DNA of 63,881 nucleotides, the filler included, from Collodictyon triciliatum (Eukaryota): NCBI GenBank assembly GCA_043381765.1. It is 15 parts of 15 records of this genome, joined end to end, with 100 filler letters (N's around TTAATTAATTAA, not from the genome) between each part and the next. Parts side by side here need not be neighbours in the genome. Positions count along the whole stretch, not along the records: positions 17,827 to 22,181 come from JBHJMP010006202.1; 14 more parts are not named here. One strand, written 5' to 3'. The position numbers and the translations under genes are program-made. Below are positions 3-57,723 of the stretch, one piece after another; the stretch's first letter is position 1; every line of letters begins with the position of its first letter. The notes beneath the pieces are model-generated. The model ran no database searches, was not told the origin of the DNA, and worked only from the letters and a program-made list of their open reading frames with translations.

Positions 3-3000
3 ATGGATTTCAGAGGGATTCAAATTCCAAATGCCGACATGTCACAGTCTGTTGCTGATGGTGCTGACTTCACTGGTGCCAACTTGGAGGGTGTTTTGTT
101 CTATAATGCGTGTATTTCAAACTGTGTTTTTGATGGAGCGAATATGAAAGGCGTTAATTTTGGTTGCTCGCCACTGTTTTTGGGACATACAGAGCCAGTC
201 TTCAGTGTTTGCAGTATTCAAGGACCGAATGGTGAAAATTGGCTGGCTTCTGGAAGTATGGATAATACGATACGTATTTGGGATGTAGCCACAGGAAACC
301 AAATCAAAACATTAGAGGGTCATAAAGAGCCAGTCATGAGTGTTTGCAGTATTCAAGGACCGAATGATGAAAATTGGCTGGCTTCTGGAAGTGTTGATAA
401 AACAATACGTATTTGGGATGTAGTTACTGAAAGCCAAATCAAAAGATTAGAAGGTCATACAGATGTTGTCAATAGTGTTTGCAGTATTCAAGGACCGAAT
501 GGTGAGAATTGGCTGGCTTCTGGAAGTTATGATAAAACAATACGTATTTGGGATGTAGCCACAGGAAACCAAATCAAAGAGTTAGAAGGTCTTATAGGAT
601 GTGCCAGGAGTGTATGCAGTATTCAAGGACCGAATGGTGAAAATTGGTTGGCTTCTGGAAGTGGTGATAGAATACGTATTGGGGATGTAGTCACAGGAAA
701 CCAAATCAAAACATTAGAAGGTCATACAAATTATGTCGAAAGTGTTTTCAGTATTCAAGGACCGAATGGTGAAAATTGGCTGGCTTCTGGAAGTGTTGAT
801 AAAACAATACGTATTTGGGATGTAGCCTCAGGAAACCAAATCAAAACATTAGAAGGTCATACAAATTATGTCAGGATTGTATGCAGTATTCAAGGACCGA
901 ATGGTGAAAATTGGTTGGCCTCTGGAAGTGAAGATAAAACAATACGTATTTGGGATGTGGCCACAGGAAACCAAATCAAAACATTATATGGTCATGAAGC
1001 TACTGTTGTAAGTGTTTGCAGTATTCAAGGACTGAATGGTGAAAAGTGGCTGGCTTCTGGAAGTGAAGATAAAACAATACGTATTTGGGATACAGCCACA
1101 GGAAACCAAATCAAAAGATTAGAAGGTCATGCAAATAAAGTCACAAGTTTTTGCAGTATTCAAGGACCGAAAGGTGAAAATTGGTTGGCTTCTGGAAGTG
1201 ATGATGATAATCCCTTTGATAGAAATAATGATAATACTACAATACGTATTTGGGATGTAGCCACAGGAAACCAAATCAAAACATTAGAGGGTCATAGAGA
1301 GCCAGTCACTAGTGTTTGCAGTATTCAAGGACCTAGTGGTGAAAATTGGCTGGCTTCTGGAAGTGAAGATAAAACAGTACGTATTTGGGATGTAGCCACA
1401 GGAATTCAAATCAAAAAATTGGAAGGACATACAAAACCTGTCATGAGTGTTTGCAGTATTCAAGGACCGAATGATGAAAAGTGGTTGGCCTCTGGAAGTA
1501 AGGATCGGAGACTATGTATTTGGGATGTAGCCACAGGAAACCAAAGAAAAATATTAGAAGGACATATGCATATCGTCATGAGTGTTTGCAGTATTCAAGG
1601 ACCGAATGGTGAAAAGTGGTTGGCCTCTGGAAGTGTAGATAAAACAGTACGTATTTGGGATGTAATCACAGGAAACGAAATCAAAATATTAGAAGGTCAT
1701 ATAAGTTCTGTCAGTAGTGTTTGCAGTATTCAAGGACCAAATGGTGAAAATTGGTTGGCTTCTGGAAGTTATGATAAAACAATATGTATTTGGGATGTAG
1801 CCGCAGGGAACCAAATCAAAACATTAGAAGAGCATACAGATTATGTCACTAGTGTTTGTACTATTCAAGGACTGAATGGTGAAAACTGGCTTGCTTCTGG
1901 AAGCCGTGATAATACAATACGTATTTGGGATGTAGCCGAAGGAAAACAAATCAAAACATTAGAAGGTCATACAGGTGAAATCAACAGTGTTTGCAGTATT
2001 CAAGGACCGAATGGTGAAAATTGGTTGGCTTCTGGAAGTAATGATAAAATAATACGTATTTGGGGTGTAGCCCCAGGAAACCAAATACATAGCCTGCAAA
2101 AATCAGAAATGACCAACAGTGATAAGGTCTATTTGGTCATGAAAGATAAACCAGAAGAATTCATTGCGATATTCAATGAAACAAGTGATGTGATGAACAT
2201 GATTGATACAAACAGAATAATGAATGTGAGAACTGTTCGAATTATCGGCCCAAGAACTGTTGAAGCTGTTAATACTCGTATCAATAGAGCTGAACTGGGT
2301 GCAATGAACAAGAAACTATTCCTGCAAGAAGGTGCTGTTTCCTTTGATGCGGAATTTGTTTCCTATTGTGAGCAGGGTAAGTTCACCATGTTTCAGGCTC
2401 AAATGACGGCTGAGTGCTATGAGAATGGATGGGGTGTTGAAAAGGTCACTAAAAAAGCAGCTGAATGGTTTGGAATAGCTAAGAAATTTGACAAACTGAA
2501 GCAACTTGCGCAACAACGCTCAAAAGAGGCATTCGATGTTTTGAATGAAATGACTGAAATGAAGGATGAATATAGGGAATACAAATATCCACAGGCTGTT
2601 TCTATTGTTGCTGAATGTTATGAGAATGGATAGGGTGTTGAGAAGGACACTTTACTGTCTCTTAAATGGGAAATATTCAGTGGAAAAGCTGAAAACTTTG
2701 ACACATTGAAGCAACTCGCACAACAAGGCTCAAAAGAGGCATTCAATGTTTTGAAAGAGATGGCTGAAATGGAGGATAGGATATACATATATCCACAGGC
2801 TGTTTCTATTATTGCTGAATGCTATGAGAATGGATGGGTTGTTGAAAGGGACACTGTATCATCTCTTAAATGGGAAATATTTGGTGGAAAGACTGAAAAC
2901 TTTGAAAAACTGAAGGAACTCGCACAACAAGGCTCAAATGATGCATTCAATGTTTTGAAAGAGATGGCTGAAAGAAATGATAGGAGATACATATATACAC

Positions 3001-4357
3001 CAGCTGTTTTTATTGTTGCTGAATGCTATGAGAATGGATGGGGTGTTGAGAAGGACATCACATTATCTTTCAAATGGGAAATATTTGGTGGAAAGACTGA
3101 AAACTTTGAAAAACTGAAGGAACTCGCACAACAAGGCTCAAACGATGCATTCAATGTTTTGAAAGAGATGGCTGAAATTGAAGACGAAAAATATTGCGGA
3201 TACGAAAATCAACCAGCTGTTTCCATTGTTGCTGAATGTTATGAGAATGGATGGGGTGTTGATAAGGACACCGAGAGGGCTATCGAATGGTTTGGAAAAG
3301 CTAAAAACTTTGACAAATTGAAGCAACTCGCACAACAAGGCTCAAAGGAGGCATTCAATGTCTTGAAAGAAATGACTGAAATGGAATATGGAGATGGCAA
3401 ATACAAATATCCACGTGCTGTTTCTATTGTTGCTGAATGCTATGAGAATGGATGGGGTGTTGAAAAGGACACTGTATCATCTCTTAAATGGGAAATATTC
3501 AGTGGAAAAGCTGAAAACTTTGACAAATTGAAGCAACTCGCACAACAAGGCTCAAAAGAGGCATTCAATGTCTTGAAAGAAATGGCTGAAATGAAGGATA
3601 ATGTTGGGAGATGGGACGAAAAATACAAATATCCACAGGTTGATTCTATTATTGCTGAATGCTATGAGAATGGATGGGGTGTTGAAAAGGACACCGAGAA
3701 AGCAATTGAGTGGGGTCTATTGGCTCTGAAAGCAGCTCAAAACTTTAACAGGCTGAAGCAACTTGCACAACAAGGCTCAAATGATGCATTCAATGTCTTG
3801 AAAGAAATAGCTGAAACAAAGGAATATGGAAGGTACAAATATCCGCAGGCTGTCTCTATTGTTGCTGAATGCTATGAGAATGGATGGGGTGTTGAGAAGG
3901 ACATCGAGAAAGCTGCTGCATTGTTTGGAAAAGCTGAAAACTTTGACAAATTGAAGCAACTTGCACAACAAGGCTCAAAGGAGGCATTTAATGTTTTGAA
4001 AGAAATGACCGAAATGAAGTATAAATATGGCGGATACATATATATACAGGCTGTTTCTATTGTTGCTGAATGCTATGAGAATGGATGGGGTGTTGAGAAG
4101 GACACTGCATCATCTCTTAAATGGGAAATATTCAGTGGAAAAGCTGAAAACTTTGACAAATTGAAGCAACTCGCACAACAAGGCTCAAAGGAGGCATTCA
4201 ATATTTTGAAAGAAATGGCTGATATGAAATATGATTGGAATGAAAAACACAAATATCCACAGGCTGTTTCTATTGTTGCTGAATGCTATGAGAATGGATG
4301 GGGTGTTGAGAAGGACACTGCATCATCTCTTAAATGGGAAATATTCAGTGGAAAAGC
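3..4357 (+). CDS. Pentapeptide-repeat + 14x WD40 + Sel1-like repeat protein (C-terminal part of a probable NACHT/STAND-type receptor); partial at both ends, one in-frame TAG at 2631-2633
   Basis: ORFs 3..2633 and 2706..4409 are in the same frame and separated only by TAG where every other repeat has TGG (YENG-W-GVEKD). Pentapeptide repeats at ~3-165 (DFRGIQIPNADMSQSVADGADFTGANL). 14 WD40 units of mostly 45 aa at ~183-2085 (GH..V.SVCSIQGPNGENWLASGS.D.TIRIWD). Cap motif NTRINRAELGAMNKKLFLQEGAV. Ten AECYENGWGVEKD Sel1-like units. Confidence 0.85.
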
Positions 4358-4457
4358 NNNNNNNNNNNNNNNNNNNNNNNNNNNNNNNNNNNNNNNNNNN
4401 NTTAATTAATTAANNNNNNNNNNNNNNNNNNNNNNNNNNNNNNNNNNNNNNNNNNNN
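4358..4457. other. Artificial contig-joining spacer N44-TTAATTAATTAA-N44 (first of 14)
   Basis: Identical 100-bp spacers at 4358, 8815, 13271, 17727, 22182, 26636, 31089, 35538, 39986, 44431, 48875, 53317, 57759 and 62200. TTAATTAATTAA gives stops in all six frames. Contig lengths fall from 4357 to 4341 bp. Confidence 0.98.
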
Positions 4458-8130: not shown

Positions 8131-8914
8131 TGCGGTGGTTTATACTGACGCCAAAACAATTCCAAAAATTACAACAAAATAATAACCAAAAAAACTATTG
8201 GAAAAGGAAAAGAAAAGATAAATGCTCAATAGAGTTTCCTTTCTTAAAAATAACGCTAGATAAACTGAAAGCAAAAGGGATTATGCTTGCAGCGCGCCAT
8301 CCTTGATTTGCGTACGAAAAAAAAAAAGAAATAAACTCTTCTTAAGCACAGAATAGAAAACAATAGTTACGTCCGCAGGCTATTGCTGTAAGTGAAAATA
8401 TCTTCGTGACTCTTCATCTATACATTCACTTTTTCTCTTCTATTTCTCTCTATCTTTTTGTTCTTCACTCCAATATCTTGCTAACACGTCGATACCAGGA
8501 AAAAGTGGCCATCAAGAGACCAAAAACAATCAAGCTGCCTGCAGAGAATGCTTCTTCCATTTGGTTGATACAGATACACCAAACGAATGTCATCAACAGG
8601 TCCTGAAATTGAGAAAAGCGTGACTATTCTTGTTCAGTTTATTGTTTTTTGCCTCATTCCTACATTATAAGACTCAATAGAAGTCACCAAGTCTCATCGA
8701 ACTTTTCAAATGTTGCTTATTCGACAGAGGCGACAAAGCAGCGATTGCAGCGTCGAGTGGGAAAGGTAGTAGAATCACGCAAATTATCATATCTGGCTTT
8801 CTTGTAGCATATTTNNNNNNNNNNNNNNNNNNNNNNNNNNNNNNNNNNNNNNNNNNNNTTAATTAATTAANNNNNNNNNNNNNNNNNNNNNNNNNNNNNN
8901 NNNNNNNNNNNNNN

Positions 8915-10128: not shown

Positions 10129-12972
10129 TTACTCCAAAAGAAAAAAACTCAACTGTTTTTGTCCATTTTCTTTCTTTTTTATAGCCTCATTTACCAAAGA
10201 AAGCAACCGAACGGAACGGCACATACCACTTCGCTCAACAAGAGATTGAAGCTCAGATGGCTCGAATTTTCTTCTGCTGGCTGTGTATTCTGCAAGGCGA
10301 TAAAACCCTTGACATATTCCAAGGTCTGCAGCTCTATTGTACCTTTGAAATATTTCACTCGAAGAAAATCCAACAAAATCCGCCATGGTCTTTAAAAGGC
10401 CAGGTTTTCGATTTCTCACAACATCACCCACAATCAAAGACATCACCCCTTCTGCAGCTATGTTCCGCACAGATATAATGGTGTCTAGAAGATCTCTCCC
10501 TTGGAGAATAGTATCTCGCTCGATATTCTTTTCAAAGTTGCTGAATAAAGTCATGAAATTTGGAGTCTTCAAAGTTACGTGTGCATCCCTATATTCGTTG
10601 TCATTGCATTCCTCTAAGAGATTGTGCATGCCAAAAAAAACCAATGGGTTATTTGGATTTAATTTGTTTGCCTTTATATAATACCGATATGCTCTATGGA
10701 AATGGCGAGCAGCGTGATTTTCTAGGGCCAGAATAAACTGAAATTCAACAGAATTCGAAATCTCTGCTAAGACCATTCTCCCTCGTTCATCTGAGTTGTT
10801 TCGTAGACGAAATAAATAACTGACTGCCTTTGTGAGATTTTGATTAATTACTCTATCTTTCATATGGATAGACCCGAGTGCATATAAGACATCGCCCGAA
10901 TTGTCCCGACTACTTTCCATCACACATTTTTCCATATTACCGACAACTTTCACAATCATTTCTGTGTTCTTTGTCTGATTAAAGTATTGATAGAGCTTCA
11001 AGGAGTATTCGGGAACTTTTGAGCCACATATGAGATATAGTAATCTCCGCTCAGCCTCGTCTGTCAGGCCTACCTCATAGAGCCCCCTATTATCGAAGAC
11101 AAATGAGTTCACAGACTCGTACCCTTTTGCATAGATGGCATATAGTAACTGAATTGATTTGCTATATGACTGATCACACCGTGTGCCTTCCAAGTATTCA
11201 ATACCCATGAAAAATGATGCATCAGGGTCGTCCAAAGCTGATGCTGCTCTAATTATATGTATATTGCAACTTTTCGGATTTTCTAGAACGAAACATTGTC
11301 TGAAGAGCTCAAGGATTTTCTTTTGCGCACGCAAGTGACCTGCTTGGGATGCTGCACCTAGAAGCTGAATAAAATCAAAAGGCGACTCATAATTCCCCTC
11401 TGCATTTGCAGTAATCATGTAATGTTGATAATATGCGTCGATTATCTCAGACATCACCGCTAGCTCGATAAAACGAATTCGATGCAAACCATTTAATCCG
11501 TCAAGCATGGTCTTGTAGTATTTACTAGTAAATATCTTTGCTTCATTTGAATCAACATCAAACGCAATTTCCAGTAATTTGTATGCATCCATAATACCTG
11601 TCGAGTTGACAGGGTGGGTAAGTAACTGATTTGCCTTATGAATCAGTGCCTTTATGTGCCTACTGAGAATTCCGATTTGAAGTACCTCAGCGGCTAGTGC
11701 ATGATTCCTTGAAACCTTTTTCATCAGAGTATCATAATTTTCATTCACGTAAAATAAAGAATCAGGGAACTGACCTAGAACAGCTGATTTAAGATATTTG
11801 AGACCCATTTCTATACTTTTTTGCTTTTTTTTTGGAAAGAATTGGCACTGATGTAAATGGCAATTCATCATGTAATGTGAGGCCTCTGGGTGGCCTTTGT
11901 GAGAGACCATTTGATTCAACATGTAAATGTTTTCATCGCTAGGAAGGTATAGTATGAATGAATGATAGTTGTTCATGACGAAATCTAATGCTTTTGAATG
12001 GTTCATTTCAACTGCTCTCAAAAAGTTTGCAAATGCTTTTGGAACATTACGAGGGACATGCTTTCCTTCAAATAATAAATATGCAAAGCGATAATGACAG
12101 TGGGGTATTCCAAACTCACTACATGGCCCATATAGTTCATTTATACTTTTCTTGTCAGTTTGAACATTATCGAATATTGCTTCAAGTCCCAGAAATGTAA
12201 TCGACTCCCCGATCATGAATTGAACCACGGCCGATATCTTGGGGTTCCTTCCAGGTCTCTCCAGAAGCTGATTTTGAATAATTTCGATTGCTTTCTTCTT
12301 CTCGCTACGGCGAACATGCTGAAAATCATGAGAATGGATAACCAGCATATGGTCAGAGAACAATTCCTCTGGCTCTGTTCGTTCCTGCACAATTAAGGAG
12401 TGAAGAATCTTTGGCATCACTGCATCAGGATTCAAATACATTGCGTGCGTTAGTTTGCTTAAGGCCTCACGTAAGTTCATATTTGCATAATGCTCGGCCG
12501 CGATGAGGAACAAATCTGTCTCTGAATTCATTCGCATTCTGTACAGTTTTTCTGCCTTGGGGTAGCCCTGTGAGATTGCACGCTCCAAGTGATGCATAGA
12601 GTCTAAGAAGCTTTGGTTTGTGCCTTTGCCGAGCCACAAATGGATACTGAGTTCGTAAAGAGCAGACGGCTCGTTGAATAGGGAAATAACTCGGAATAGT
12701 CTGACTAAATGGTCATCCCTCTTCAAGAATGGCCTCAAATAATTATATTCTTTGTAAACAGTATTTAGGAGGATAGGATTGAGTGATTTCTCTCGACCTT
12801 GCAAATTTTTTTCAAAGGAAGCGAGTGCCTCCAGGTGCACGGGGTCCGTTTCTTGGACTGCTTCTTCAGGGGTATGATAAAAGCTTACCAAAATATAAAG
12901 ACAAGCTGCAGATATTAATAAGCCAAAGAGAATTTTCAAGTTCGATGGATAGGATTTAAATGTGCGCATCAT
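10129..12972 (-). CDS. Intronless 947-aa Sel1/TPR-like repeat protein with N-terminal transmembrane anchor
   Basis: Long ORF. Hydrophobic ILFGLLISAACLYILVSFY near the N-terminus. Sel1 motifs ALYELSIHLWLGKGTNQS, HYRFAYLLFEGKHVPRNVPKAF, ASFFMGIEYLEGTRCDQSYSKS and YALGSIHMKDRVINQNLTKA. Confidence 0.88.
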   Translation of the reverse strand: MMRTFKSYPSNLKILFGLLISAACLYILVSFYHTPEEAVQETDPVHLEALASFEKNLQGREKSLNPILLNTVYKEYNYLRPFLKRDDHLVRLFRVISLFNEPSALYELSIHLWLGKGTNQSFLDSMHHLERAISQGYPKAEKLYRMRMNSETDLFLIAAEHYANMNLREALSKLTHAMYLNPDAVMPKILHSLIVQERTEPEELFSDHMLVIHSHDFQHVRRSEKKKAIEIIQNQLLERPGRNPKISAVVQFMIGESITFLGLEAIFDNVQTDKKSINELYGPCSEFGIPHCHYRFAYLLFEGKHVPRNVPKAFANFLRAVEMNHSKALDFVMNNYHSFILYLPSDENIYMLNQMVSHKGHPEASHYMMNCHLHQCQFFPKKKQKSIEMGLKYLKSAVLGQFPDSLFYVNENYDTLMKKVSRNHALAAEVLQIGILSRHIKALIHKANQLLTHPVNSTGIMDAYKLLEIAFDVDSNEAKIFTSKYYKTMLDGLNGLHRIRFIELAVMSEIIDAYYQHYMITANAEGNYESPFDFIQLLGAASQAGHLRAQKKILELFRQCFVLENPKSCNIHIIRAASALDDPDASFFMGIEYLEGTRCDQSYSKSIQLLYAIYAKGYESVNSFVFDNRGLYEVGLTDEAERRLLYLICGSKVPEYSLKLYQYFNQTKNTEMIVKVVGNMEKCVMESSRDNSGDVLYALGSIHMKDRVINQNLTKAVSYLFRLRNNSDERGRMVLAEISNSVEFQFILALENHAARHFHRAYRYYIKANKLNPNNPLVFFGMHNLLEECNDNEYRDAHVTLKTPNFMTLFSNFEKNIERDTILQGRDLLDTIISVRNIAAEGVMSLIVGDVVRNRKPGLLKTMADFVGFSSSEIFQRYNRAADLGICQGFYRLAEYTASRRKFEPSELQSLVERSGMCRSVRLLSLVNEAIKKKENGQKQLSFFLLE

Positions 12973-13491
12973 CTAGAGAATTCTCAACTCCCTATTTCTG
13001 TTTGAAGGTAAGCATAGTTAAATAGTATGATTTTGTGGTTTAGTTCCTTTCAAGGTCCTTTTCAAACTAGTAGGAAACTTTTTTTTTCTACTTTACATAC
13101 CTTAAAATCAACTGAATATCTCATATAGATATCAAATATGGATTGGTCATTTATGGCTGTATTTTTTTTTGTTTTTTGTTTTTGTTTTTTGTTTTTTTTG
13201 TTTTTGTTTTTGTTTTTGTTTTTGTTTTTTTGTTTTTTTTGTTTTTTTTGTTTTTTTTGTTTTTTTGTTTNNNNNNNNNNNNNNNNNNNNNNNNNNNNNN
13301 NNNNNNNNNNNNNNTTAATTAATTAANNNNNNNNNNNNNNNNNNNNNNNNNNNNNNNNNNNNNNNNNNNNTAAAAATAAAAATAAAAATAAAAATAAAAA
13401 TAAAAATAAAAATAAAAATAAAAATAAAAATAAAAATAAAAATAAAAATAAAAATAAAAATAAAAATAAATGAAAAAGGCAATATTCTGAC

Positions 13492-16400
13492 CTGTAAATT
13501 TGTTGTTTGAAAGTTCAGCGTATTTTAGTGAAGTTAGGTTCATAAAATTTGGCAGAGAACCTAATAGAATCCATAATTAGACGGTATAAATTTTGTGACA
13601 TTTATAAACATAAGTTATTTTTACCTTCAAAGTGATTGTATTGAATCGATAATGCAATTAATCTTTGCATGAATCGGAAATCAGGAAGTGTCCCTTTTTT
13701 ATTTTATTTTATTTTTATAGTGCCTCATTCAATCATAATGTTGAAATTATCTGAAATCAAATTACATTATAAAAAATATGGATGTATTATAAAAACCAAC
13801 TCAGACCTTTCAAAAAATTATTGTTTATACCAATGAATTCAATAATACGAACATTAATGAAATTTGGAAGCGCTCCTGCATTTTTAATCCAAATATTAGC
13901 AAAGGATATCATTATATTCTTTATGGAGAATATGGTGACTATTCCATTCAAATTACCTGTTAATTGATTATCCATCAGAGCTAGCTGAATAAGACTTGGT
14001 ACATTTTCGAGTTTTGGTATAGTGCCTAGAAAAGGCAATCCAAAGGTCAAAATGGCGGGAAAAAAATAAATTACTTGCTATATACTTGATATGGGAATAT
14101 AGGAATAATCACCGTTGATGAAGTTGTTTGAAAGATAGAGATATTTCAGCCTCGGCAGATGGAAATCAGGTATTGTTCCTAAATATATCCGAAAATATTG
14201 GTTTTTAAAGAAAACCTTGTTCATTTGTAAACCTAAACCAGAAAAATTCAGTTATAGCTAAAAATGAACATTTCAGTTATCAATTATGCGACAATTACCT
14301 TCTAGCCTATTGTTCATGAAGTAAATCTCCTGCAGATTGGACAGTTGGTCGAAGTTTGGTATAGTCCCTGAGTCGAAAGACGCACGATGAGTAATTTGTA
14401 ATCACCGTAAATATTGCATTTCTTGATTTTGGTCAGTTACCAGACAAATAGGTATTAAATATAGATAGCGACGTCAACGATGTCTGGTTGTACTCAGGGA
14501 TTGTTCCTATGTTTAGTAGTTTAAAAAAAAATAAAAGAAGGTAAAAATCAACGAGAATTAAATTAAATTAAATATAATAGATATTGTAATATTACGATGA
14601 TAAACCTGAAAGCTCATTATTAAAGACAATAATTTCGTTTATTGTAGAGCAGTGTAACAGTTTTGGCAGTGTCCCTGGTTAGTGTTGCAAAAATAAGAGA
14701 TACAATTTATTTATCATGATATAAAACCTATACATGAAATCAAAGACTGTGAACTTGAAATTTTCCTGTACGAATGTTTACATATACTAATGTGTGCAAT
14801 ATTGAAAGGAAGAGCATGTAGAGTAAATTATGTGCTCATTTTACCAGTGAGGTCGTTCATATCCAATCCTAGCACTGATAGAAACGGTAACTTGAACTCT
14901 GGTATTGTCCCTGTTCAAAATGCAATTTACTTTTATTTTTTAATTGTTTTCGTAACATAATTATGATTTGATATAAACGGGCACATACCCGACAGGAAAT
15001 TAGAGCCTAAAAACAATAGCTGTAGTGAGGGGCAGCTACTCATAATTGGTACGGCGCCTAATAAAACAATTATAAATTCGATAATATTGCTTTATGTCAA
15101 GAGCCAATTCTTATACACACCGTTGTGTTGATTGGCTATTCCATACATATCCACTAATAATGGCAGCTCCAAGTCTGTCGGAATGGTTCCTTTGACAAAA
15201 AGTATGTTAAAATGCTATTCAGTTCTTGATTCATCGTAAAGGCGACTGGCGAATTCTCTTTATACCAAAAAAATTAAAATACCAGAGAGCTGGTTGAAAG
15301 CGGTGCCCAGAGTGTGCATTCTGGGGGCAAACTCTACTCTAGGAAATGAGCCTAATAATTTTATGAGATATTGTTAAAAATTACAATCATTAATCGAAAA
15401 AGAAATCATATAATGCACTTAATATCTAAATATAAGGTTGCTGAAGGGATAAATTCTTTACCCGAAAGACAATTATTATGAAGATAAAGGACTTTAATAT
15501 CTGGTATATTTCTTACATTTGGGATAGTGCCTGATGTATAAATGTAAAAATTCATTAATTAAATATGTGCTCTATTACGTACAAACTATTGAGCTTACCA
15601 GTGAATGCGTTGGAATAATAGAGTATGTATATGAGAGCCGAGCTTTCTGGCCAAGGAGGAATGGTTCCTTTGAGAAAAAAAGGAAAGAATTTTTTTTGTT
15701 AGATTGGATATCTGACTTGATTAACTCACTAATANNNNNNNNNNNNNNNNNNNNNNNNNNNNNNNNNNNNNNNNNNNNNNNNNNNNNNNNNNNNNNNNNN
15801 NNNNNNNNNNNNNNNNNNNNNNNNNNNNNNNNNNNNNNNNNNNNNNNNNNNNNNNNNNNNNNNNNNNNNNNNNNNNNNNNNNNNNNNNNNNNNNNNNNNN
15901 NNNNNNNNNNNNNNNNNNNNNNNNNNNNNNNNNNNNNNNNNNNNNNNNNNNNNNNNNNNNNNNNNNNNNNNNNNNNNNNNNNNNNNNNNNNNNNNNNNNN
16001 NNNNNNNNNNNNNNNNNNNNNNNNNNNNNNNNNNNNNNNNNNNNNNNNNNNNNNNNNNNNNNNNNNNNNNNNNNNNNNNNNNNNNNNNNNNNNNNNNNNN
16101 NNNNNNNNNNNNNNNNNNNNNNNNNNNNNNNNNNNNNNNNNNNNNNNNNNNNNNNNNNNNNNNNNNNNNNGTAAAACTTCTGAAGATGAGGGAGATGTTC
16201 GAAGGACGGCAAAGTCCCTGGGTTCAGATTTCATATAAAAATAGATACAAATTGGATGTATGGATAATTTTGAAAGAGAGTAGTATAATGCAATTAATAA
16301 GAAAAGGCTCATTCCAACATCTTCACCATCCTGCACAAAATTGAAAGGAAGATTAAAAAGAAAAAAGAAAAGGCTCATTCGTACCACTGAGGCGTGAATT

Positions 16401-17391
16401 TTCTGCAAGATATATGGCGTAAAGTAGTGGAGTTTCACTGAAATTTGGTATCTCCCCTTCAATATGTGTCGCACTTGCAGATAAGAGCAAGAGGGATGGA
16501 ACGTTCCGGTAATCTGGTATAGTACCGGTAATAAAATTGCCATCGTAGACGATATATTCCAACCTGGGATGATTTATGTCTGTCAAGGTTCCATAAAGAT
16601 TGTTGCCAGAGAGCACAAAATAGGAAAGCCATGTGAGCTTTTCCAAATATCTTTCGCCTTCAGTGATGTTTCCTATGAGCATATTTTCTTCCAACAGAAT
16701 GCCAACAACCGGACACGTGTTGTTCTATGATTATCATAGGTTAATTATTACTATCGAATAGCGATTAATACGGGGATTCAAATATTATGATGATTCGTGT
16801 GTATGCAAACGCATGTGACCCATCTCAGCTTTGGGATCATTTTTCTGTATATAATCAAACACATTCATTAGATTCAAACTCACCGCTATCATCGAATCCG
16901 AGCATTGCTCATAACACTTGATACCGTACCAATAGCAGACAGGAATGGATGCATTAACCCAACCTCGTTTTTTAATCCATTTTTCTCCTCCAAAATTATA
17001 AAACAGACTCGTTAAAATATCCAAATTAGATTCAGATGTTACATTCTCTGATGTTTGTTCAAAATAAAGTCGTTCGTTGTAAGCGTGGTGATAAAAAAGC
17101 GCATTCCATCTGCCAGTTGGCTCTGATATATCCTCTTCCTGACTAACTTGGCCGCTCGTTTTGTCATCTAAATCCTCATTAATTTTGTCCATCTGATCAT
17201 GAACGAAGATGGAATTTGTATATTGCGTAGCCTTCTTGATCCGTTCGATTTGCGTCGTATTATCTCCAACATCACTGTGTAAACACATTTCACGGTAGAT
17301 GTTGCGTAGGAGAATAATGGCCTCCTCGTAGGTCAAGCTTTCGATAGTTTTTCCTTTGCTCTGACAGATTGCCTCAAGTGATGCGAGGCTG
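13492..17391 (-). CDS. Multi-exon extracellular LRR receptor-like protein (LRRNT cap followed by a one-LRR-per-exon array); partial
   Basis: Exon ~16884-17391 has the LRRNT motif (LFYNFGGEKWIKKRGW...CYWYGIKC). Exon 16385-16724 has about 4 LRRs. Partial exon 16171-16217, then an N gap. Single-LRR exons at 15599-15667, 15462-15530, 15283-15351, 15121-15189, 14989-15057, 14845-14910, 14606-14674, 14441-14506, 14299-14367, 14113-14178, 13957-14025, 13807-13875, 13625-13693 and 13492-13560. All are AG/GT bounded and read G-T-I-P-x..L..L.L..N.L. Confidence 0.92.
16299..16380 (+). mobile_element. 50-bp 5'-truncated family B retro-insertion (16315-16364) with 16-bp target-site duplication
   Basis: AAGAAAAGGCTCATTC at 16299-16314 and 16365-16380 flanks CAACATCTTCACCATCCTGCACAAAATTGAAAGGAAGATTAAAAAGAAAA. 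The insert matches the tail of the 33268-33510 copy. Confidence 0.85.
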
Positions 17392-17425
17392 CTATAGGAA
17401 AGAATGTATAAATGTTTCTTTTTTC

Positions 17426-17726
17426 AGAAATAGAAATAGAAATAGAAATAGAAATAGAAATAGAAATAGAAATAGAAATAGAAATAGAAATAGAAATAGA
17501 AATAGAAATAGAAATAGAAATGGAAAAAGAAATAGAAAAAGAAATAGAAAAAGAAATAGAAAAAGAAATAGAAAAAGAAATAGAAAAAGAAATAGAAAAA
17601 GAAAAGTACTGACTACCTGTGATGCAAATAAAATAAAAATAAAAAATAAAAAATAAAAAATAAAAAATAAAAAATAAAAAATAAAAAATAAAAAATAAAA
17701 AAAAAAAAAAAAAAAATAAAAAATAA
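17426..17726. repeat. (AGAAAT)n, (AGAAAAAGAAAT)n and (AAAAAAT)n microsatellites
   Basis: Read directly from the sequence. Confidence 0.95.
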
Positions 17727-17826
17727 NNNNNNNNNNNNNNNNNNNNNNNNNNNNNNNNNNNNNNNNNNNNTTAATTAATTAANNNNNNNNNNNNNNNNNN
17801 NNNNNNNNNNNNNNNNNNNNNNNNNN

Positions 17827-20800
17827 TGAGATTGAGATTGAGATTGAGATTGAGATTGAGATTGAGATTGAGATTGAGATTGAGATTGAGATTGAGATTG
17901 AGATTGAGATTGAGATTGAGATTGCTTTAGTGATGTTAAAATTTTAGAAAACGATGGTCTTGACTGAGATGAATTGTAAGTACCATTTACAATCAAGAAT
18001 GGTGCTATAATGTTATCGGATTCTTGATATAAAGTAATCATTCTATCATTGGCGCTTTTTTGGAACGCATCATATGTTCTTAATCTTATGGAAATCCCAA
18101 TCCTAGTATGACTAAATGTGTGAGCTTCGACAATGAATGAGCCGTTTTTTAGGCTCTCTGATTGTACAGATATTATGTCGTTTTGGTCCAATAGTTGAAC
18201 TCCTCTTATTATCTGAATTCCATAAGATGGTGAAGTTAAAAAAAGAATATCATAGCTGGTCTGAGCAGAAGAATATGTCATATCAGCCTTTCTTGAATCA
18301 ATCGTTATTCTCAAAAGTGAGTTTGTGATGGACGGGGCGATGACGTTAACATCAAAAAATCTCCATTTGTTTGCAAGAACTCTTATCAGATATATCGCGT
18401 CTTGAATTTGGAGTTTACCATTTTTGTCAGCATCCATCATTCTATATTGATATTCAGCTATTGTTGTTGTGACCATACCAGCGAGGTATTTCAAGGTGAA
18501 CTGAACATCTGCAATTGAGAATTCACAATCTCCGTCTGCATTTCCAAGGATTCTTGATGGGACGCATGTTGGTGATGTGTTTTTTTTAAGATGTATTATC
18601 TGCAAAGTTCTTCGACTATGATAATAATGTGTAGTATCTTCCTCTCTTAACTTGCTCTCTAGAACACCACCAGTTCCACATTTGATCCAAACAGCACCTG
18701 ATACAACACTTCTTCGCTCTCCCTGACCCAACCAGGATCCTATAACTGTTGTTGAAGCGTCGTTGGAAAGTAGCTTGGTTATGAAACCAGTCAAGAGATA
18801 TATTCCGTCCAACTTACATTTGAAATCTACCGTGGTAATCTCAAGGATTCCTCGGTTTGATGTAGATGGGTTTGCAGCTCCAACTATTCGGATGATACCG
18901 GGTGGGTCATTCAGAGTGACTTCAAGTTGACCTCCAGGCCAGTTTCCGCCCTTCCCGTAAGATGACACATCGATGGCATCCTTGTTGTAAGTCAAACTTA
19001 TATCTAAACTCCCTATTGGTTTTGTCCCTGTATTAATCCTCACGGGTACAGATGTGACCAACCCGATGGGCCTGTCAGTGATCGGTAGGCCTGTGGTGAC
19101 TCCTATATCTACATCCCCAATATCTGGAGCGAGGTTTGCAGCCGTAAATGATGATCCTTCGATTCCATCGCAAGTGCGTGCGGACAATTTGACAATTTTT
19201 CTAGAATTTGATATAATAGTGGCTAACCCAACATTATCTATGGTAATAGAAGTTGCATCATCGCTTTTGTACTCAAGAAGACCTGAAATTAAGTGAGCGG
19301 AGACGTATTTCGTCCCATCCCGGAAGATTACTGTGGACAGCAACCTTTGTGTTGTTTTACCTGCAATAGATGTGTATGTGGAAGGAAATGATGTTGTAAT
19401 GGTTTCTGCTTCGATACGCTCATCCAAAATACCAAGAACGATATACGCCTGTTTGTTGTAATATGAGCCTATAATCGTGATATTGCTCCAGGAACTACCG
19501 GTGGGTGATACAATATTCTTTGAAATTATTTTAGCTACATCACTTGATCTTTCAGGAATAGAAAACACAGTGTGTACCGTGGAACTTACATCGTAAAGTG
19601 TCTCATCAGAAAGAGCTATCGATAAAGAAAGCACAGAACGTTGGTAAACTTGAGTACATGTATACCGTCTTAGTTTAGTCAGTGATTGCGTATTTGAGCC
19701 CATGTAACTTGGGTACGGTGTGGAAGTCATGTTAATGGTTAAAAATCCTACAACTTCGATACTAACCCTCCCTTGAATATTCGGAGCATTCAAAACTGAT
19801 ACATAAATGCTGACACCTCCGAATCCATTACCAGTGGCTGTAATATACATATTGTTTCTTCCATTTTCTACCATGTACTGTTTGATTTGTACTAAATTGT
19901 GCGGATCTCCTGTTTGATCATCAAAACGTGTTCGAGAATCTAAGGTGTAATCGATTTGTTTACCATTTTCTAGAACACATATCACTTGTAGCATGCTTTG
20001 TGTTGGAATCCCGACAGTTGATGCAATATCACCTGTAGCTGTAATTTTCAAGTTGTTTATTGACACAAGAATTTTGATTATCTTTGGTATTTTAAGATTG
20101 ACTATCCCCAATCCTGATTTGATTACTTTTCCACATGACTTCAGAGAGACGTTTACATATTTCCCGCAGCCACTTGAATTAACAATCACACGAGGGGGGT
20201 CTCTCGATATAGACACGGCATAGTTTGATGAAGTAACCTCCAAATTTTCATAACTTGATAGCTCTAGTTGCGACCCATCTGAGAAGATGGCATATGTGAT
20301 TATACGACCTTCCATATTCTCAGAGTTTAGATTTTGCTCTATTCTAACTCTCAATACACCAATAGAACTTGGTCTGAATCCCCCATTCGGTGATACTATG
20401 GTAGGTCTTATGTCTGTGATGATAATTGGATGTATTTTCTCCACAGTAACATAGCTATCGCTGACCACAATTTGAAGAATATTTGATGTATAGCCCTTTA
20501 GTCTTAATGTCGACACTCCAGGACTTCTCCCCTGGATCGTCATATTACTCACGTCAATCACATTTTCATCAGATACGGAGTATATAGAATATCTCGATAT
20601 ATCTGCAAGAAACTCGTCTGTCCCGCTTGCAAATGTTACGATGGCATGAATTTGACTCCATTGATATCGAGGTTTAAGACAGTCTTGCGTCTTGTAATCT
20701 TGAATGGCATTCAGTATATTATCTTCCGCCGATAAATTTGCAGGGCCTTTGGGATAATATATACGAACGCTACTACGGGCCTCTTGATACGTAATGACCA

Positions 20801-22181
20801 CTGAATCTGAACCTGTTATCTCTTTGCCATTTAATTTGATTCTGCAGCCTTCCAACGTCACCGCTGCAGTATCAGGAGTTAGGCAGATAGAGTTATTTGA
20901 AATATCTTTAACTCCTTGAAACTCATAAAACTCTAAGACTGTTAGTGGAACAGTAATAGGCTGCTGAGATATCACTGCTGTATTAACAATATACTGTTGT
21001 GTAGACCGAATAAAGTGACCTCTCACCATATCTTGTCCCACGTTCAAGAATCCTATATTGCTAGATTGAGCTATGTCACATACAATGCCATATGTGAATT
21101 CTTGCACCATTGGTACATTCTGTACATCTGTCATTTGCCTAATGGTAAAACTCACGGATCCACTTCTTTCAGCAGGAGATGAATTTGTTTTCCATGATAT
21201 AGTTGCGATTTTTACTGTTCCGGTTACAGATATGTCATTGACTCCATTTTGTCGAGTCCATACTATAGAGGCACTAGAGTCTAGGATATTCGTTGCACCT
21301 GAAAACTTTCCGTCACCTTGAATACTTGTGATTGATGCTACATTTTTTGGTATTGAGAAAACTACATTCAACCCTTCAAGAATTTTTCCGTCAGTGAATG
21401 CAGTTAACACTGTTGTGAAGGTAGAAGACGGAAGAATAGGTTGTTGTGGTAATTGCAACTTCATTCCTACCTTTGGAAGCTCAGTGTAAGTTGGTAAAGC
21501 AATCATAGTTGCAAATTTCAACGGTATTATAACAGATCCATGCGAAATGTTAGGAGTAATAGTTACATTTTTGTTTGTGAACTTTGATAAAGGTATATTT
21601 ATAGCGACCATGCAGGGTATGACGCCATCATATATGCAACTCGAAGTCAGTAGAGGATTGTCTGCTATCCAAACTGTTATTTTACCTCCTAGGTTATTTG
21701 TTTCCCCTTTAGTCCCAACAAGCCAGACTCTAACATATACCGTTGGTGAGCTACTATAAATGTTTGTCGACAATGTGATTCCACGAGGCTCCGTTGGACT
21801 GATTTTGGAAACAGTGACAGAATCTGAGAGGAATTTTATATCACCCAAATAGGCATATACTGAAGGTGGAGGAGTAGTGTCTATTATACCTGTTATATTA
21901 TAATAGTAAGTCCAGTGAGAGATAATATCCATTTTGCCACGAGTGAATCCGCTGGAAGCAGGTGCGAATTCGAATGTCAGTGCAGGCTCGATTTCTTGAC
22001 TTACCGGAACACAAAAGCCACACACATCTTTCACCTCACCATGATCGCAAGGAATTGGTAAAGACTGAGACTGAGACTGAGATTGGGATTGGGATTGGGA
22101 TTGAGACTGAGATTGAGATTGAGATTGAGATTGAGATTGAGATTGAGATTGAGATTGTGATTGTGATTGGGACTGAGACTG
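17827..22181 (-). CDS. TMEM132-like cohesin/bacterial-Ig-like protein with an additional cohesin and a dockerin; intronless, open at both contig ends (>1450 aa)
   Basis: The frame is open across the whole contig, with (SQ)n at both ends. TMEM132-type motifs: IVNTAVISQQPITVPLTV, CRIKLNGKEITG, VRIYYPKGPANLSAEDNILNAI..C..PRYQ, TYAIFSDGS and SGCGKYVNVSL..C...I.SGLG. Cohesin-like VSVPVRINTG..IGSLDISLTYNKDAIDV..NDPPGIIRIVG at ~18770-19070. Dockerin-like GNADGDCEFSIADVQFTLKYLAG...DADKNGKLQIQDAIYLIRVL at ~18367-18570. Confidence 0.85.
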
Positions 22182-22358
22182 NNNNNNNNNNNNNNNNNNN
22201 NNNNNNNNNNNNNNNNNNNNNNNNNTTAATTAATTAANNNNNNNNNNNNNNNNNNNNNNNNNNNNNNNNNNNNNNNNNNNNTTATTCACTTTTTTTTTAT
22301 TCACTTTTTTTTTATTCACTTTTTTTTATTCACTTTTTTTTTATTCACTTTTTTTTTA

Positions 22359-22446
<88 letters not shown>

Positions 22447-23699
22447 CTTTTTTTTTATTCTCTTTTTTTTTTTTATTTACTTTTTTTTATTCACTTTTTT
22501 TATTGACTTTTTGTGTGGCTATTTTATTGACTTTTGAGCGGCTTTCTCCAGTTGGTGCTAGTGGGGACAAGAAAGGAAAAAATGAAAGGAGAAAAAAATG
22601 TGGGAAATTTCTTTTTTTGAAAACGAGTATAGAAAGTTCATAGAAACAGTTGGCAATAGGGAGCAAATGTATGGAAATTGCCAGCGCGTTGGGGTAATGA
22701 GGAGGCAAGCGAGCGAAAATGAACTGTGTTAATTTATTAAACTATTAACAAATGAGCTATTGAAACAAAGCTAATTCCTCGGTGTTTGAAAGTAAACTAT
22801 GTCCACGGGAAATATAATAAAATATATTCCACAACAGAAACATTGTTTGTGCATAATTGGAATACATTTCTGGAACAATATTTCGATATTTTTAATTGAA
22901 CATTTCTTATTTTGAACACATTGAATGAACCTAGGCAGAAAGCATACCAAAATGAAGCTATATCGGCACCATGCAATATTCAGTGAAATCAGACCAAAGC
23001 ATCAAATCTTTTTTGAAAATCGCCGTCGCCTTCATCGAACCGAACCAACAATCAACCTCGCTGTCCCACCGCGCATCGCGTCGGAATCGCACGGACGGCA
23101 AACGTAATCCACATCCGAGAGAGACTCGCGAATCGCAAGGCAAACGTTGTGCGGCAGCGCCGGTTCTACTTGAACCCTGACGGACTTGCTCGTGGGGGAA
23201 ATGACGAAGTCGCAAAGAGAGCGAGCAGGCTGTGTCGCGCTTGCCGCTTGCTTACGATCGACTTTCTTCTTTCTTTCTTTTTTTTCTTTTTATTATTTGG
23301 TATTATTTTTTTCTTTTGATGTTTCCTTTTTTTTATTTCACTATTATAAGCTGTATTCTTTTCTTATTATTTGTCGTTCTGTTTTTGTTTTTGTTTTTTC
23401 CCCCTCCTTTTTGTTCTATTTGGGTCCTGGAGGAGGACTCTGAGTTTCATGAATCAACTCTCAAACCTTTTCGTGACTGATCAAGCTCTTCTCTAATTTT
23501 TTATCAAGACAATTTTCCCTTTAATCTCCCCCGAAGCAGGATTTCTTTTCTCTTTATTTTCTTTCACCCCCACAAAGATCTGTAGTGTATCCTTTTCCAA
23601 TAGAGAAAAAAAAAGACAGAAAACAAACAGAAAACAAAAGCGTCAGCGATCATATGTGTCGTCAATTCCGAAGGGTCTTTCAAATAGCAGATATTGATA

Positions 23700-56716: not shown

Positions 56717-57603
56717 TTAGCTTGTTGCACAGTTTCCAGAGCCTGCCCTATCGAACTTCTGCTGGGCTACAAGGTCACCTGCATCGGCAGCTTTACCGTA
56801 CCAAGCCATCGCACTTCGAAGGTTTTTCATCGTGCCGAGGCCTTTGGCAAAGCATTCTGCAACATTTCTCATGGCCTCTGCGTGTCCCTGGTTGGCTGCA
56901 AGCTTATACCAATCGAACGCTTGTGCCATATCCTTTGGTACACCTTTGCCTGTCGCGTAGCGTGTTCCCATAATGAATTGGGCCTCTCGGTCGCCATTAT
57001 CAAAGATAAATTGGCATAAATCTGTCCGTACGTCGATTGTTGGGGCGAACTCTGCATCTTTGGCCTGTGTGATAATAGATGTGGTTTTCGTCGGAGAGGG
57101 TAGCGTTTCGCTTAAGGGGTTATCTGGTCTAGGGTGTCCTTGTGTTGTTAGATTCACTTGGTAGCTCTTTTGGCTTCCAGCTTGTCGGAACCTTGTGATG
57201 GCTTCCGTTTTATCTTTTGCAACACCGTAACCCTCACGAAACATCAGTCCCATCATTCGTTGAGAATATGAATGACCCACATCTGATGCTTTTTGGTACC
57301 ACTTTGCGGCTGTACCGTAGTCTCTGGTGAGAAGGGTTCCCTGGAAATAGATGTCACCGAGTTTTGCAAAGGCGTCAATAAGCCCATGGTCACCACATAT
57401 TTTCAAATGCTCCACAGCAGCATCGGCATTTGGTTTCGTTCCTATACCATCCAGCAGGCACAAAGCCATTTGATAGCGAGAGCGAGTGTGGTTCTTCTTT
57501 GCGCCTAGCTTGAACAAACCAAAAGCCAGCTGGTAGAGAGGAGTATCTTGATGATTCTCAACCATCCTTGGAGTACTCGGACTAGATGATTGCCCAAAAG
57601 AAC
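56717..57603 (-). CDS. Sel1-like repeat protein, terminal exon
   Basis: Canonical SLR motifs AFAKLGDIYFQGTLLTRDYGTAAKWYQKASDVGH and AQFIMGTRYATGKGVPKDMAQAFDWYKLAANQGH. Confidence 0.92.
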
Positions 57604-57723
57604 CTTGAAATTAAGGTGAATTGTTATTGGTATTTTGAGAATACGAACACACCACATGAATTACGAACTCCAGAGTTCGGTTGAAATTAAAAAAAAAAGA
57701 AAAAAAGAAAAAAAGAAAAAAAG

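Follow-up and report, generated by a model that had tools for sequence, protein, structure and literature searches.

A TMEM132-like surface-protein fragment from Collodictyon triciliatum with a candidate self-clasping cohesin-dockerin cassette

The window analysed here is a 63,881-nucleotide stretch of DNA from the Collodictyon triciliatum assembly GCA_043381765.1. Its positions 17827-22181 (JBHJMP010006202.1) encode part of a TMEM132-like protein in which a second cohesin, a dockerin-like module and a conserved β-sandwich form a compact cassette. The window comprises about 15 contigs of ~4.35 kb chained in descending size, each shorter than the last by ~1 base. Spacers of the form N44-TTAATTAATTAA-N44 recur every ~4.4 kb along it (4358-4457, 8815-8914, 13271-13370, 17727-17826, 22182-22281 and onward) and carry stops in all six frames. 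The stretch 17827-22181 is therefore a separate 4355-base contig whose neighbours supply no genomic context. Neighbouring genes were thus ruled out as context for it, the pieces of the window being unrelated and ordered by size.

Translation of 17775-22181 yields a single minus-strand frame of 1469 codons that runs without a stop between two N runs and is open at both contig ends. By our own arithmetic, at ~6% stops per codon, a frame of this length has a chance probability of ~1e-40. The same CAATCT/CAGTCT hexamer microsatellite, translated as (SQ)n, lies at both ends of the contig, and the assembler probably halted there. The (SQ)n tract nevertheless appears to be more than an artefact and to form a real linker of the window protein, since the relative L001 also ends in (SQ)n directly after the same last domain. 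The true N-terminus, with any signal peptide, lies beyond the 5' end of the contig, and no continuation of the frame (REJ, GPS, transmembrane helix or signal peptide) is present elsewhere in the window. The Pfam scan of the protein covered 1411 residues. The following features were assigned using hidden Markov models (HMMs), profile searches, hhalign, Foldseek and AlphaFold2 (AF2), the last of these with its predicted local distance difference test (pLDDT) and predicted template modelling (pTM) scores.

22062-22181, minus strand: 5' (SQ)n linker, 40 codons of CAGTCT/CAATCT microsatellite reaching the contig end
21492-22061, minus strand: N-terminal Cys motif (PCDHGEVKDVCGFC) and first β-sandwich, corresponding to the region before the cohesin in TMEM132
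20085-21659, minus strand: TMEM132-like ectodomain core, amino acids (aa) 135-659 (hhalign against fish TMEM132D)
21093-21470, minus strand: first cohesin-like domain, aa 198-323, the TMEM132 '3rd domain' (HMM, profile, hhalign)
19185-20081, minus strand: three to four further immunoglobulin (Ig)/bacterial Ig (BIG)-like β-sandwiches, aa 661-959 (AF2, HMM, profile)
18684-19142, minus strand: second cohesin, type I-like, aa 974-1126 (Pfam, Foldseek, profile)
18600-18659, minus strand: disordered cohesin-dockerin loop, aa 1135-1154 (pLDDT <50, model residues 176-195)
18360-18593, minus strand: dockerin-like module, aa 1157-1234, a duplicated calcium (Ca) loop with helices (profile)
18507-18545, minus strand: Ca loop 1, NADGDCEFSIAD, then a helix
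18399-18434, minus strand: Ca loop 2, DADKNGKLQIQD, then a helix
17961-18359, minus strand: conserved post-dockerin β-sandwich, aa 1235-1367 (AF2 strands 276-400; HMM 4.4e-23)
17827-17924, minus strand: 3' (SQ)n linker reaching the contig end, beyond which the rest of the gene would lie

The TMEM132 architecture consists of a conserved region, a cohesin-like domain and three BIG/Ig domains (Sanchez-Pulido & Ponting 2018, PMC6030884). An alignment of 31 family members compared by hhalign with fish TMEM132D (P0002) places window residues 135-659 colinear with TMEM132D residues 166-781, with this domain order kept throughout (probability 99.7%, E 1.2e-26, 511 columns). Two of the TMEM132 Ig domains are also recognized directly by Pfam: Ig_TMEM132_4th at 20769-20999 (32.8 bits, cut-off 27) and Ig_TMEM132_6th at 20133-20351 (35.9 bits, cut-off 27.8). 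In the 1411 residues no match was obtained to the N- and C-terminal TMEM132 families or to the 3rd and 5th domains. The first cohesin-like domain falls within the hhalign match to TMEM132D. It is hit weakly by a family second-cohesin HMM built without the query (independent E-value 0.0026), and the corresponding profile positions 80-174 match the solved cohesin 5m2s_A (E 6.3e-3). The Cys motif and first β-sandwich upstream of it align with the best relative, P0003, from residue 149. A word-based protein search with the window protein, probably swamped by SQ words, returned fish TMEM132D as its single match, and a second such search returned only P0027.

The core continues into a string of further β-sandwiches. 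The AF2 model of aa 1-959, built from 31 sequences, is all β (mean pLDDT 90.4, pTM 0.64). Within it, aa 661-959 are modelled at a pLDDT of about 90, match the family HMM at 2.4e-87 and, at profile positions 690-759, match the LigB BIG domain 2mh4_A (E 2.7e-4). Foldseek searches with this model recovered only generic Ig chains (NUP210, S-layer proteins and DSCAM; TM score <= 0.19), and these fold matches appear uninformative beyond indicating a string of Ig-like domains.

The cassette follows directly. The AF2 model of aa 960-1366 (407 residues, 41 sequences) has a mean pLDDT of 87.1 and shows, in order, a β-sandwich, a 20-residue loop with pLDDT <50, three helices and a second β-sandwich. The pTM of 0.85, reached despite the disordered loop, would require all three domains to be placed confidently relative to each other. 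The first of them is the second cohesin, which passes the Pfam Cohesin (PF00963) cut-off of 24.1 marginally, with 24.2 bits for the full sequence and 26.7 bits for the segment alone. Its model, at a pLDDT of about 95-98, fits the nine-stranded jelly-roll fold of type I cohesins, and Foldseek aligns it with solved members of that type at TMt 0.72-0.78 (6kge_A 0.78, 3ul4_A 0.77, 1aoh_A 0.74). The family profile also matches the solved cohesin 4ums_A (E 1.9e-5). The disordered loop behind it contains the motif YYHSRR (18609-18626), whose RR, the single dibasic pair there, is a possible convertase site.

The dockerin-like module retains D or N at positions 1, 3, 5 and 12 of both 12-residue Ca loops, NADGDCEFSIAD and DADKNGKLQIQD. 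Across the 41 sequences, D226, D251, D262 and a Cys in loop 1 are invariant, and the helices of the module are modelled at residues 224-234, 244-250 and 260-270 with pLDDT >90. Searched against 177,635 PDB sequences, the family profile matches the solved dockerins 4fl4_A (6.7e-5), 6kg9_A (8.4e-5), 2ccl_B (2e-4) and 1ohz_B (7.7e-4), in alignments that cover both repeats. The relative P0024 carries a Pfam Dockerin_1 match of 32.8 bits (cut-off 22.9) at the same position as the window dockerin, and Dockerin_1 is precomputed for the Myxococcales-labelled relative P0204. Among the atlas look-alikes are bacterial clusters of Big_2, Dockerin_1 and Cohesin (0.82-0.89), which we treat as leads only. 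In Ca loop 1 the invariant Cys stands at position 6, which is usually Gly in dockerins, and a C..P.C..C motif is conserved family-wide ahead of it in the cohesin-dockerin linker (P0003-P0152). These cysteines suggest disulfides that would pin the dockerin under extracellular conditions.

A first-pass annotation of this DNA had proposed much of this anatomy, and it is borne out by the present analysis. The uninterrupted frame of more than 1450 residues is seen in the 1469 stop-free codons. The TMEM132 motif order suspected at ~21460-20090 is recovered by hhalign and by the two Pfam domains above cut-off, and the further Ig-like repeats appear as the all-β AF2 chain. The second cohesin, expected at ~19070-18770, is now placed at 18684-19142, the basic linker near ~18610 lies in the disordered loop, and the duplicated Ca loop is intact and matched by solved dockerins at 7e-5 to 8e-4.

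The family to which this protein belongs is large and barely described, and the window protein is a new, divergent member of it. A HMMER search with 1200 residues found 584 representatives (clusters) at E<=1e-3, of which 151 reach E<=1e-30; giant proteins, each matched in 3 to 6 stretches, are common among them. Cassettes and linkers were counted in the best 150 of the 584 relatives, with domains located by local HMMs. In these, a cohesin immediately precedes 191 of 197 dockerin-like domains, and the conserved β-sandwich comes next after 182 of 197, once per module copy. The best relative, P0003, is 38% identical over query residues 3-1192. After the module it continues into REJ (6.9e-50), GPS (8.8e-11), one transmembrane helix and an acidic Ser-rich tail. 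L006, a relative found in a genome scan, also continues from the cassette into REJ, and other relatives contain cadherin repeats, a 7tm_2 domain or Dicty_CTDC repeats. A further profile search (A2) was dominated by the Dicty_CTDC repeats, and P0003 was not among the matches listed.

We consider it most likely that the cassette pairs within one chain rather than head-to-tail between molecules, because dockerin-like domains adjoin a cohesin in 191 of 197 cases and the cassette is modelled as one rigid unit. Cohesins and dockerins classically bind between separate proteins (PMC6030884), and the first-pass annotation had accordingly envisaged a scaffold polymerising head-to-tail. In such an assembly the dockerin would bind the cohesin of another molecule, with the loop cut or uncut, and build head-to-tail polymers in a cell-coat or adhesion lattice; a loop cut would moreover let the halves swap partners. 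The strict 1:1, same-order adjacency and the single rigid unit at pTM 0.85 speak against that proposal, as do the several complete cassettes carried by each giant protein and the near-zero linker in Myxococcota-type proteins. The window also contains no other cohesin or dockerin open reading frame (ORF), within the 64 kb of genome that it covers. We therefore regard assembly between molecules as unlikely.

When cohesin and dockerin were folded as separate chains without an alignment, the complex scored 0.39 against 0.01 for the best control, a weak pass that is also in keeping with binding between molecules. Of 78 solved complexes, 51 reach the mark used in this test, as do 2 of 108 mismatched pairs; at values <=0.60, only 5 of the 78 solved complexes reach it, together with all 4 of the mismatches that passed among 180. 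The separate-chain runs agree in at least 93% of contacts, with a partner pLDDT of at least 61. The modelling of cohesin with dockerin that the first-pass annotation had called for thus gives a weakly positive answer, albeit one that the model may owe to memory.

Linker sequences suggest how the cassette could be processed. The furin-like motif R-x-[KR]-R occurs in 114 of 191 cohesin-dockerin linkers, and 159 of 191 contain a dibasic pair. Furin-like motifs have a density of 1.94 per 100 aa in the linker, compared with 0.016 elsewhere in the same proteins. The motif is found in 59 of 86 linkers of cadherin-motif proteins, in 0 of 6 of CTDC-motif proteins and in 55 of 99 of the others. The idea that the chain is cleaved and its halves re-associate, also raised in the first-pass annotation, is therefore plausible for the family but weak for the window protein, where cleavage at the one RR is possible.

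On balance we favour the explanation that the contig encodes a piece of a surface protein with a self-clasping cohesin-dockerin cassette and a cleavable loop. The contig would supply the middle ~1400 residues of a far larger surface protein that an AT-rich eukaryote secretes or anchors in its membrane. Judging from P0003, the missing C-terminal part would comprise REJ, the GPS cleavage motif, one transmembrane helix and an acidic tail, an architecture that would make the window protein adhesion-receptor-like. The dockerin, with both Ca loops intact, would bind the cohesin of its own cassette as a Ca-dependent intrachain clasp, locking cohesin, dockerin and the next β-sandwich into one rigid joint of the stalk. 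In most eukaryote-type relatives the furin-like loop sites would allow a cut after which the halves are still held non-covalently. A joint cut in this way would release on force or on loss of Ca, comparable to Notch S1 or GAIN/GPS.

Several observations weigh against this explanation. The REJ, GPS, transmembrane and signal peptide regions lie outside the window, and the receptor architecture is carried over from P0003, whose identity to the window protein is 36-38%. The presumed contact of the dockerin with the binding face of the cohesin is read from the pTM alone. The separate-chain pass is weak, and since cohesin-dockerin complexes are solved the model may simply recall them. Cleavage is not universal, because the Myxococcota-type linkers are nearly absent (median 14 residues including margins) and carry a dibasic pair in 0 of 6 cases; the canonical fold-back may also differ sterically in these relatives. 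Within the protein's own clade, a dibasic pair is found only in the window protein (RR) and in P0003/L002 (KR), and the linkers of L001 and L006 are without any dibasic site. The window sequence by itself gives no Dockerin_1 (PF00404) match at E<=10 across 18300-18650, where only EF-hand_1 appears (E 0.14), and of 20 relatives scanned just one, P0024, reaches Dockerin_1 at E<=0.001.

The weak EF-hand match and the lack of a Dockerin_1 match in the protein's own sequence could also mean that the dockerin-like element is a structural, EF-hand-like Ca spacer that stiffens the stalk and has lost cohesin binding, with the cohesins binding glycans or matrix. The weak complex score fits such a spacer, as does the vertebrate TMEM132 cohesin, which occurs without a detectable dockerin (PMC6030884). 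However, the alignment of the family profile to solved dockerins takes in both repeats, and the occurrence of a cohesin before 191 of 197 dockerin-like domains is hard to explain without an interaction. A pure spacer is in our judgement distinctly improbable.

The same module occurs in DNA labelled as bacterial. A scan of bacterial and archaeal genomes confirmed 22 loci among 75 candidate stretches. Nineteen of the 22 are labelled Myxococcales, Deltaproteobacteria or similar, have a GC content of 0.59-0.77 and in some cases belong to contigs measuring 1.2 to 9.3 Mb. Seventeen of the 19 loci carry the TMEM132-like core (E<=1e-30) ahead of the cohesin, arranged as in the window protein. The exceptions are L010, which is truncated by a contig end, and L022, whose core scores 6e-19. 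Two of the loci, L012 (OW818691.1, a 9.29 Mb record) and L007 (a 1.24 Mb contig), contain giant ORFs of >4300 aa, open at both locus ends, that combine the whole module, from TMEM132-like core to cohesin and dockerin, with Laminin_G_3 and up to 37 EGF repeats, a strikingly animal-like matrix architecture in bacteria. The loci L001, L002 and L006 are instead labelled MAG: Bacteroidetes bacterium isolate H1_MAG_00027 (MAG, metagenome-assembled genome). They lie on contigs of 2.7-4.1 kb with a GC content of 0.46-0.49 and are 38-39%, 38% and 32% identical to the window protein, respectively. L001 and L002 are single frames open at both ends, the frame of L006 fills nearly the whole contig, and L002 nearly equals P0003.

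A midpoint-rooted FastTree phylogeny (LG+gamma, 159 sequences, 465 columns) was built from the post-core Ig region and cohesin 2, and leaves out proteins that do not have both. In this tree the window protein groups with P0003, L002 and L001 (support 0.998), and the sister group of this clade comprises 20 Myxococcota-type sequences (support 0.94). The enclosing clade of 68 members (support 0.993) contains no cadherin-motif protein, and the next deeper node has a support of 0.28. Since the window copy groups with Myxococcota-type and not with cadherin-type proteins, it appears to say little about vertical descent of TMEM132 in eukaryotes. The suggestion in the first-pass annotation that the protein pushes back the origin of TMEM132 is undercut by this grouping and by the whole module in Myxococcota-labelled genomes. 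Transfer of the module between Myxococcota and a protist lineage, in either direction, is a live possibility.

The labels of the nearest loci and the Myxococcota-type sister group would also be expected if the contig were itself a bacterial contaminant, Myxococcota-like or Bacteroidota-labelled, rather than DNA of a eukaryotic host. Its composition argues otherwise: the GC content is 0.39, and 0.32 at third codon positions (GC3), against 0.59-0.77 in the Myxococcota-labelled loci. The protein has (SQ)n microsatellite linkers, and its nearest relative, P0003, carries REJ, GPS, one transmembrane helix and a long acidic, serine-rich tail. A similar composition is seen in other contigs of the window, which contain PH and RING domains, poly(A) of >100 bases and an intron-like interruption. 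The 'Bacteroidetes' contigs, at 2.7-4.1 kb and with single or nearly single frames, are consistent with mis-binned eukaryotic DNA, and this is probably what L001, L002 and L006 are. A bacterial contaminant with a known ortholog was one of the outcomes that the first-pass annotation had set against its own proposal; the closest loci do bear a bacterial label, but they look eukaryotic. The window contigs appear to point to a eukaryote, and we consider contamination very unlikely.

Pfam matches in 46 other ORFs of the window were limited to WD40, Sel1, NHL, RING, PH, ACT/ALS_ss and ABC_tran, none of them lineage-diagnostic, and Rfam gave 0 matches over the window, with no ribosomal RNA or tRNA-grade marker. 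The contig at 44531-48874 is GC-richer (0.54 in its first 2 kb) and contains an ORF resembling the acetolactate synthase small subunit. An ABC_tran gene on the same contig is broken by AT-rich repeats (TTTTCTTTTATT-like) that contain in-frame stops and probably form an intron. At 22282-22500 and 17430-17720, poly(A) of >100 bases is flanked by (AAAAAAAGTGAAT)n, and long (TCTATT)n and (TTTTTTA)n microsatellites occur at contig ends; simple repeats seem to be where the assembly breaks off. At 3-4357 a 12-blade WD40 ORF of 876 aa is open at the contig start, and a Sel1-repeat ORF comes directly after it in another frame. Sel1 repeats recur at 10129-12972 and 56717-57610, which suggests expanded repeat-protein families in the genome. 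On the minus strand at 16353-17423, two ORFs ~90 bases apart together make up a plant-type leucine-rich repeat (LRR) protein with a W..C.W.G..C cap, and a 16-base GT..AG stretch near the break is a candidate mini-intron.

Compared with animal TMEM132, the window protein is alike in the order of the core and in the Pfam 4th and 6th domains, and it adds three to four Ig domains, a second, Pfam-grade cohesin, the dockerin and the β-sandwich. Any counterparts of the TMEM132 transmembrane segment and cytoplasmic PP1 and WIRS motifs would lie past the contig end. No dockerin is detectable in vertebrates according to the description of TMEM132 (section 2.2 of PMC6030884). The TMEM132 architecture is also found in choanoflagellate and sponge cadherins, namely lefftyrin, coherin and hedgling (PMC6030884). 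Like these TMEM132-type cadherins, the relatives P0029, P0041 and P0055 join Pfam Cadherin domains to the same module, with a dockerin-like match. The window protein, unlike lefftyrin, coherin and hedgling, has no Cadherin match at E<=1 in the 1411 residues, although its missing ends could hold some, and it falls outside the cadherin-motif proteins in the tree. We found no publication joining dockerin and TMEM132 beyond PMC6030884; an earlier mention in coherin-type proteins is possible.

The cassette resembles the cellulosomal type I pair (2ccl, 1ohz, 6kgc-6kgf) in its cohesin fold and in a dockerin profile that extends over Ca loops and helices. It differs in that the predicted pair adjoins 1:1 in one chain and has a Cys in Ca loop 1. 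Here there are no enzymes and no multi-cohesin scaffoldin, and no split into scaffoldin and cargo was encountered in the 64-kb window; among the best 150 relatives, 191 of 197 dockerin-like domains share a chain with a cohesin just ahead of them. Non-cellulosomal proteins with a cohesin and a dockerin in one chain were reportedly described by Peer et al. in 2009. Among the fold matches of the window cohesin is 2xdh (rank 26, TMt 0.75), which we take to be a cohesin of Archaeoglobus fulgidus. In contrast to such non-cellulosomal pairs, the pair described here forms part of a eukaryote-type receptor, within a TMEM132-like Ig chain, and is accompanied by a conserved third domain.

The giant Myxococcota proteins (P0011, P0020 and P0204; L003-L022, with Dicty_CTDC/EGF) share the whole ~1200-residue module in the same order. 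They differ in their high GC content, in having scarcely any linker and no dibasic sites, and in being flanked by Cys-rich, EGF or Laminin_G repeats rather than by (SQ)n and REJ. Mechanistic analogues are provided by the REJ-GPS receptors (polycystin-1/PKDREJ), by GAIN/GPS and by Notch S1, the last two being cleaved, non-covalent receptor joints. P0003 matches the REJ-GPS receptors in having REJ, GPS and one transmembrane helix behind the module; in the window protein this part would lie beyond the contig end. As in GAIN/GPS and Notch S1, a protease-sensitive loop lies between two possibly associating domains, here a predicted cohesin-dockerin pair.

TMEM132 proteins are disease-linked adhesion molecules, and to our knowledge the TMEM132 cohesin has no known partner. 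The presence of a TMEM132-like core, a second cohesin and a dockerin in one chain provides a concrete partner candidate for a eukaryotic cohesin. A wider generalization, which we offer tentatively and with considerable doubt, is that the cassette is a hitherto undescribed joint, protease-primed, Ca-dependent, force-releasable and non-covalent like Notch S1/HD or GAIN/GPS, in hundreds of giant eukaryotic receptors, including cadherin-type ones, and that the whole TMEM132-like module with its cassette moved between Myxococcota and protists. The TMEM132 architecture would then have arisen in or passed through bacteria, and not in early holozoans. The full module on Myxococcota contigs of up to 9.3 Mb changes how an 'ancient holozoan' origin is to be read. 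The part of most interest is the fixed cohesin-dockerin cassette with its protease-type loop, a candidate for a built-in breakable joint flanked by furin-like sites.

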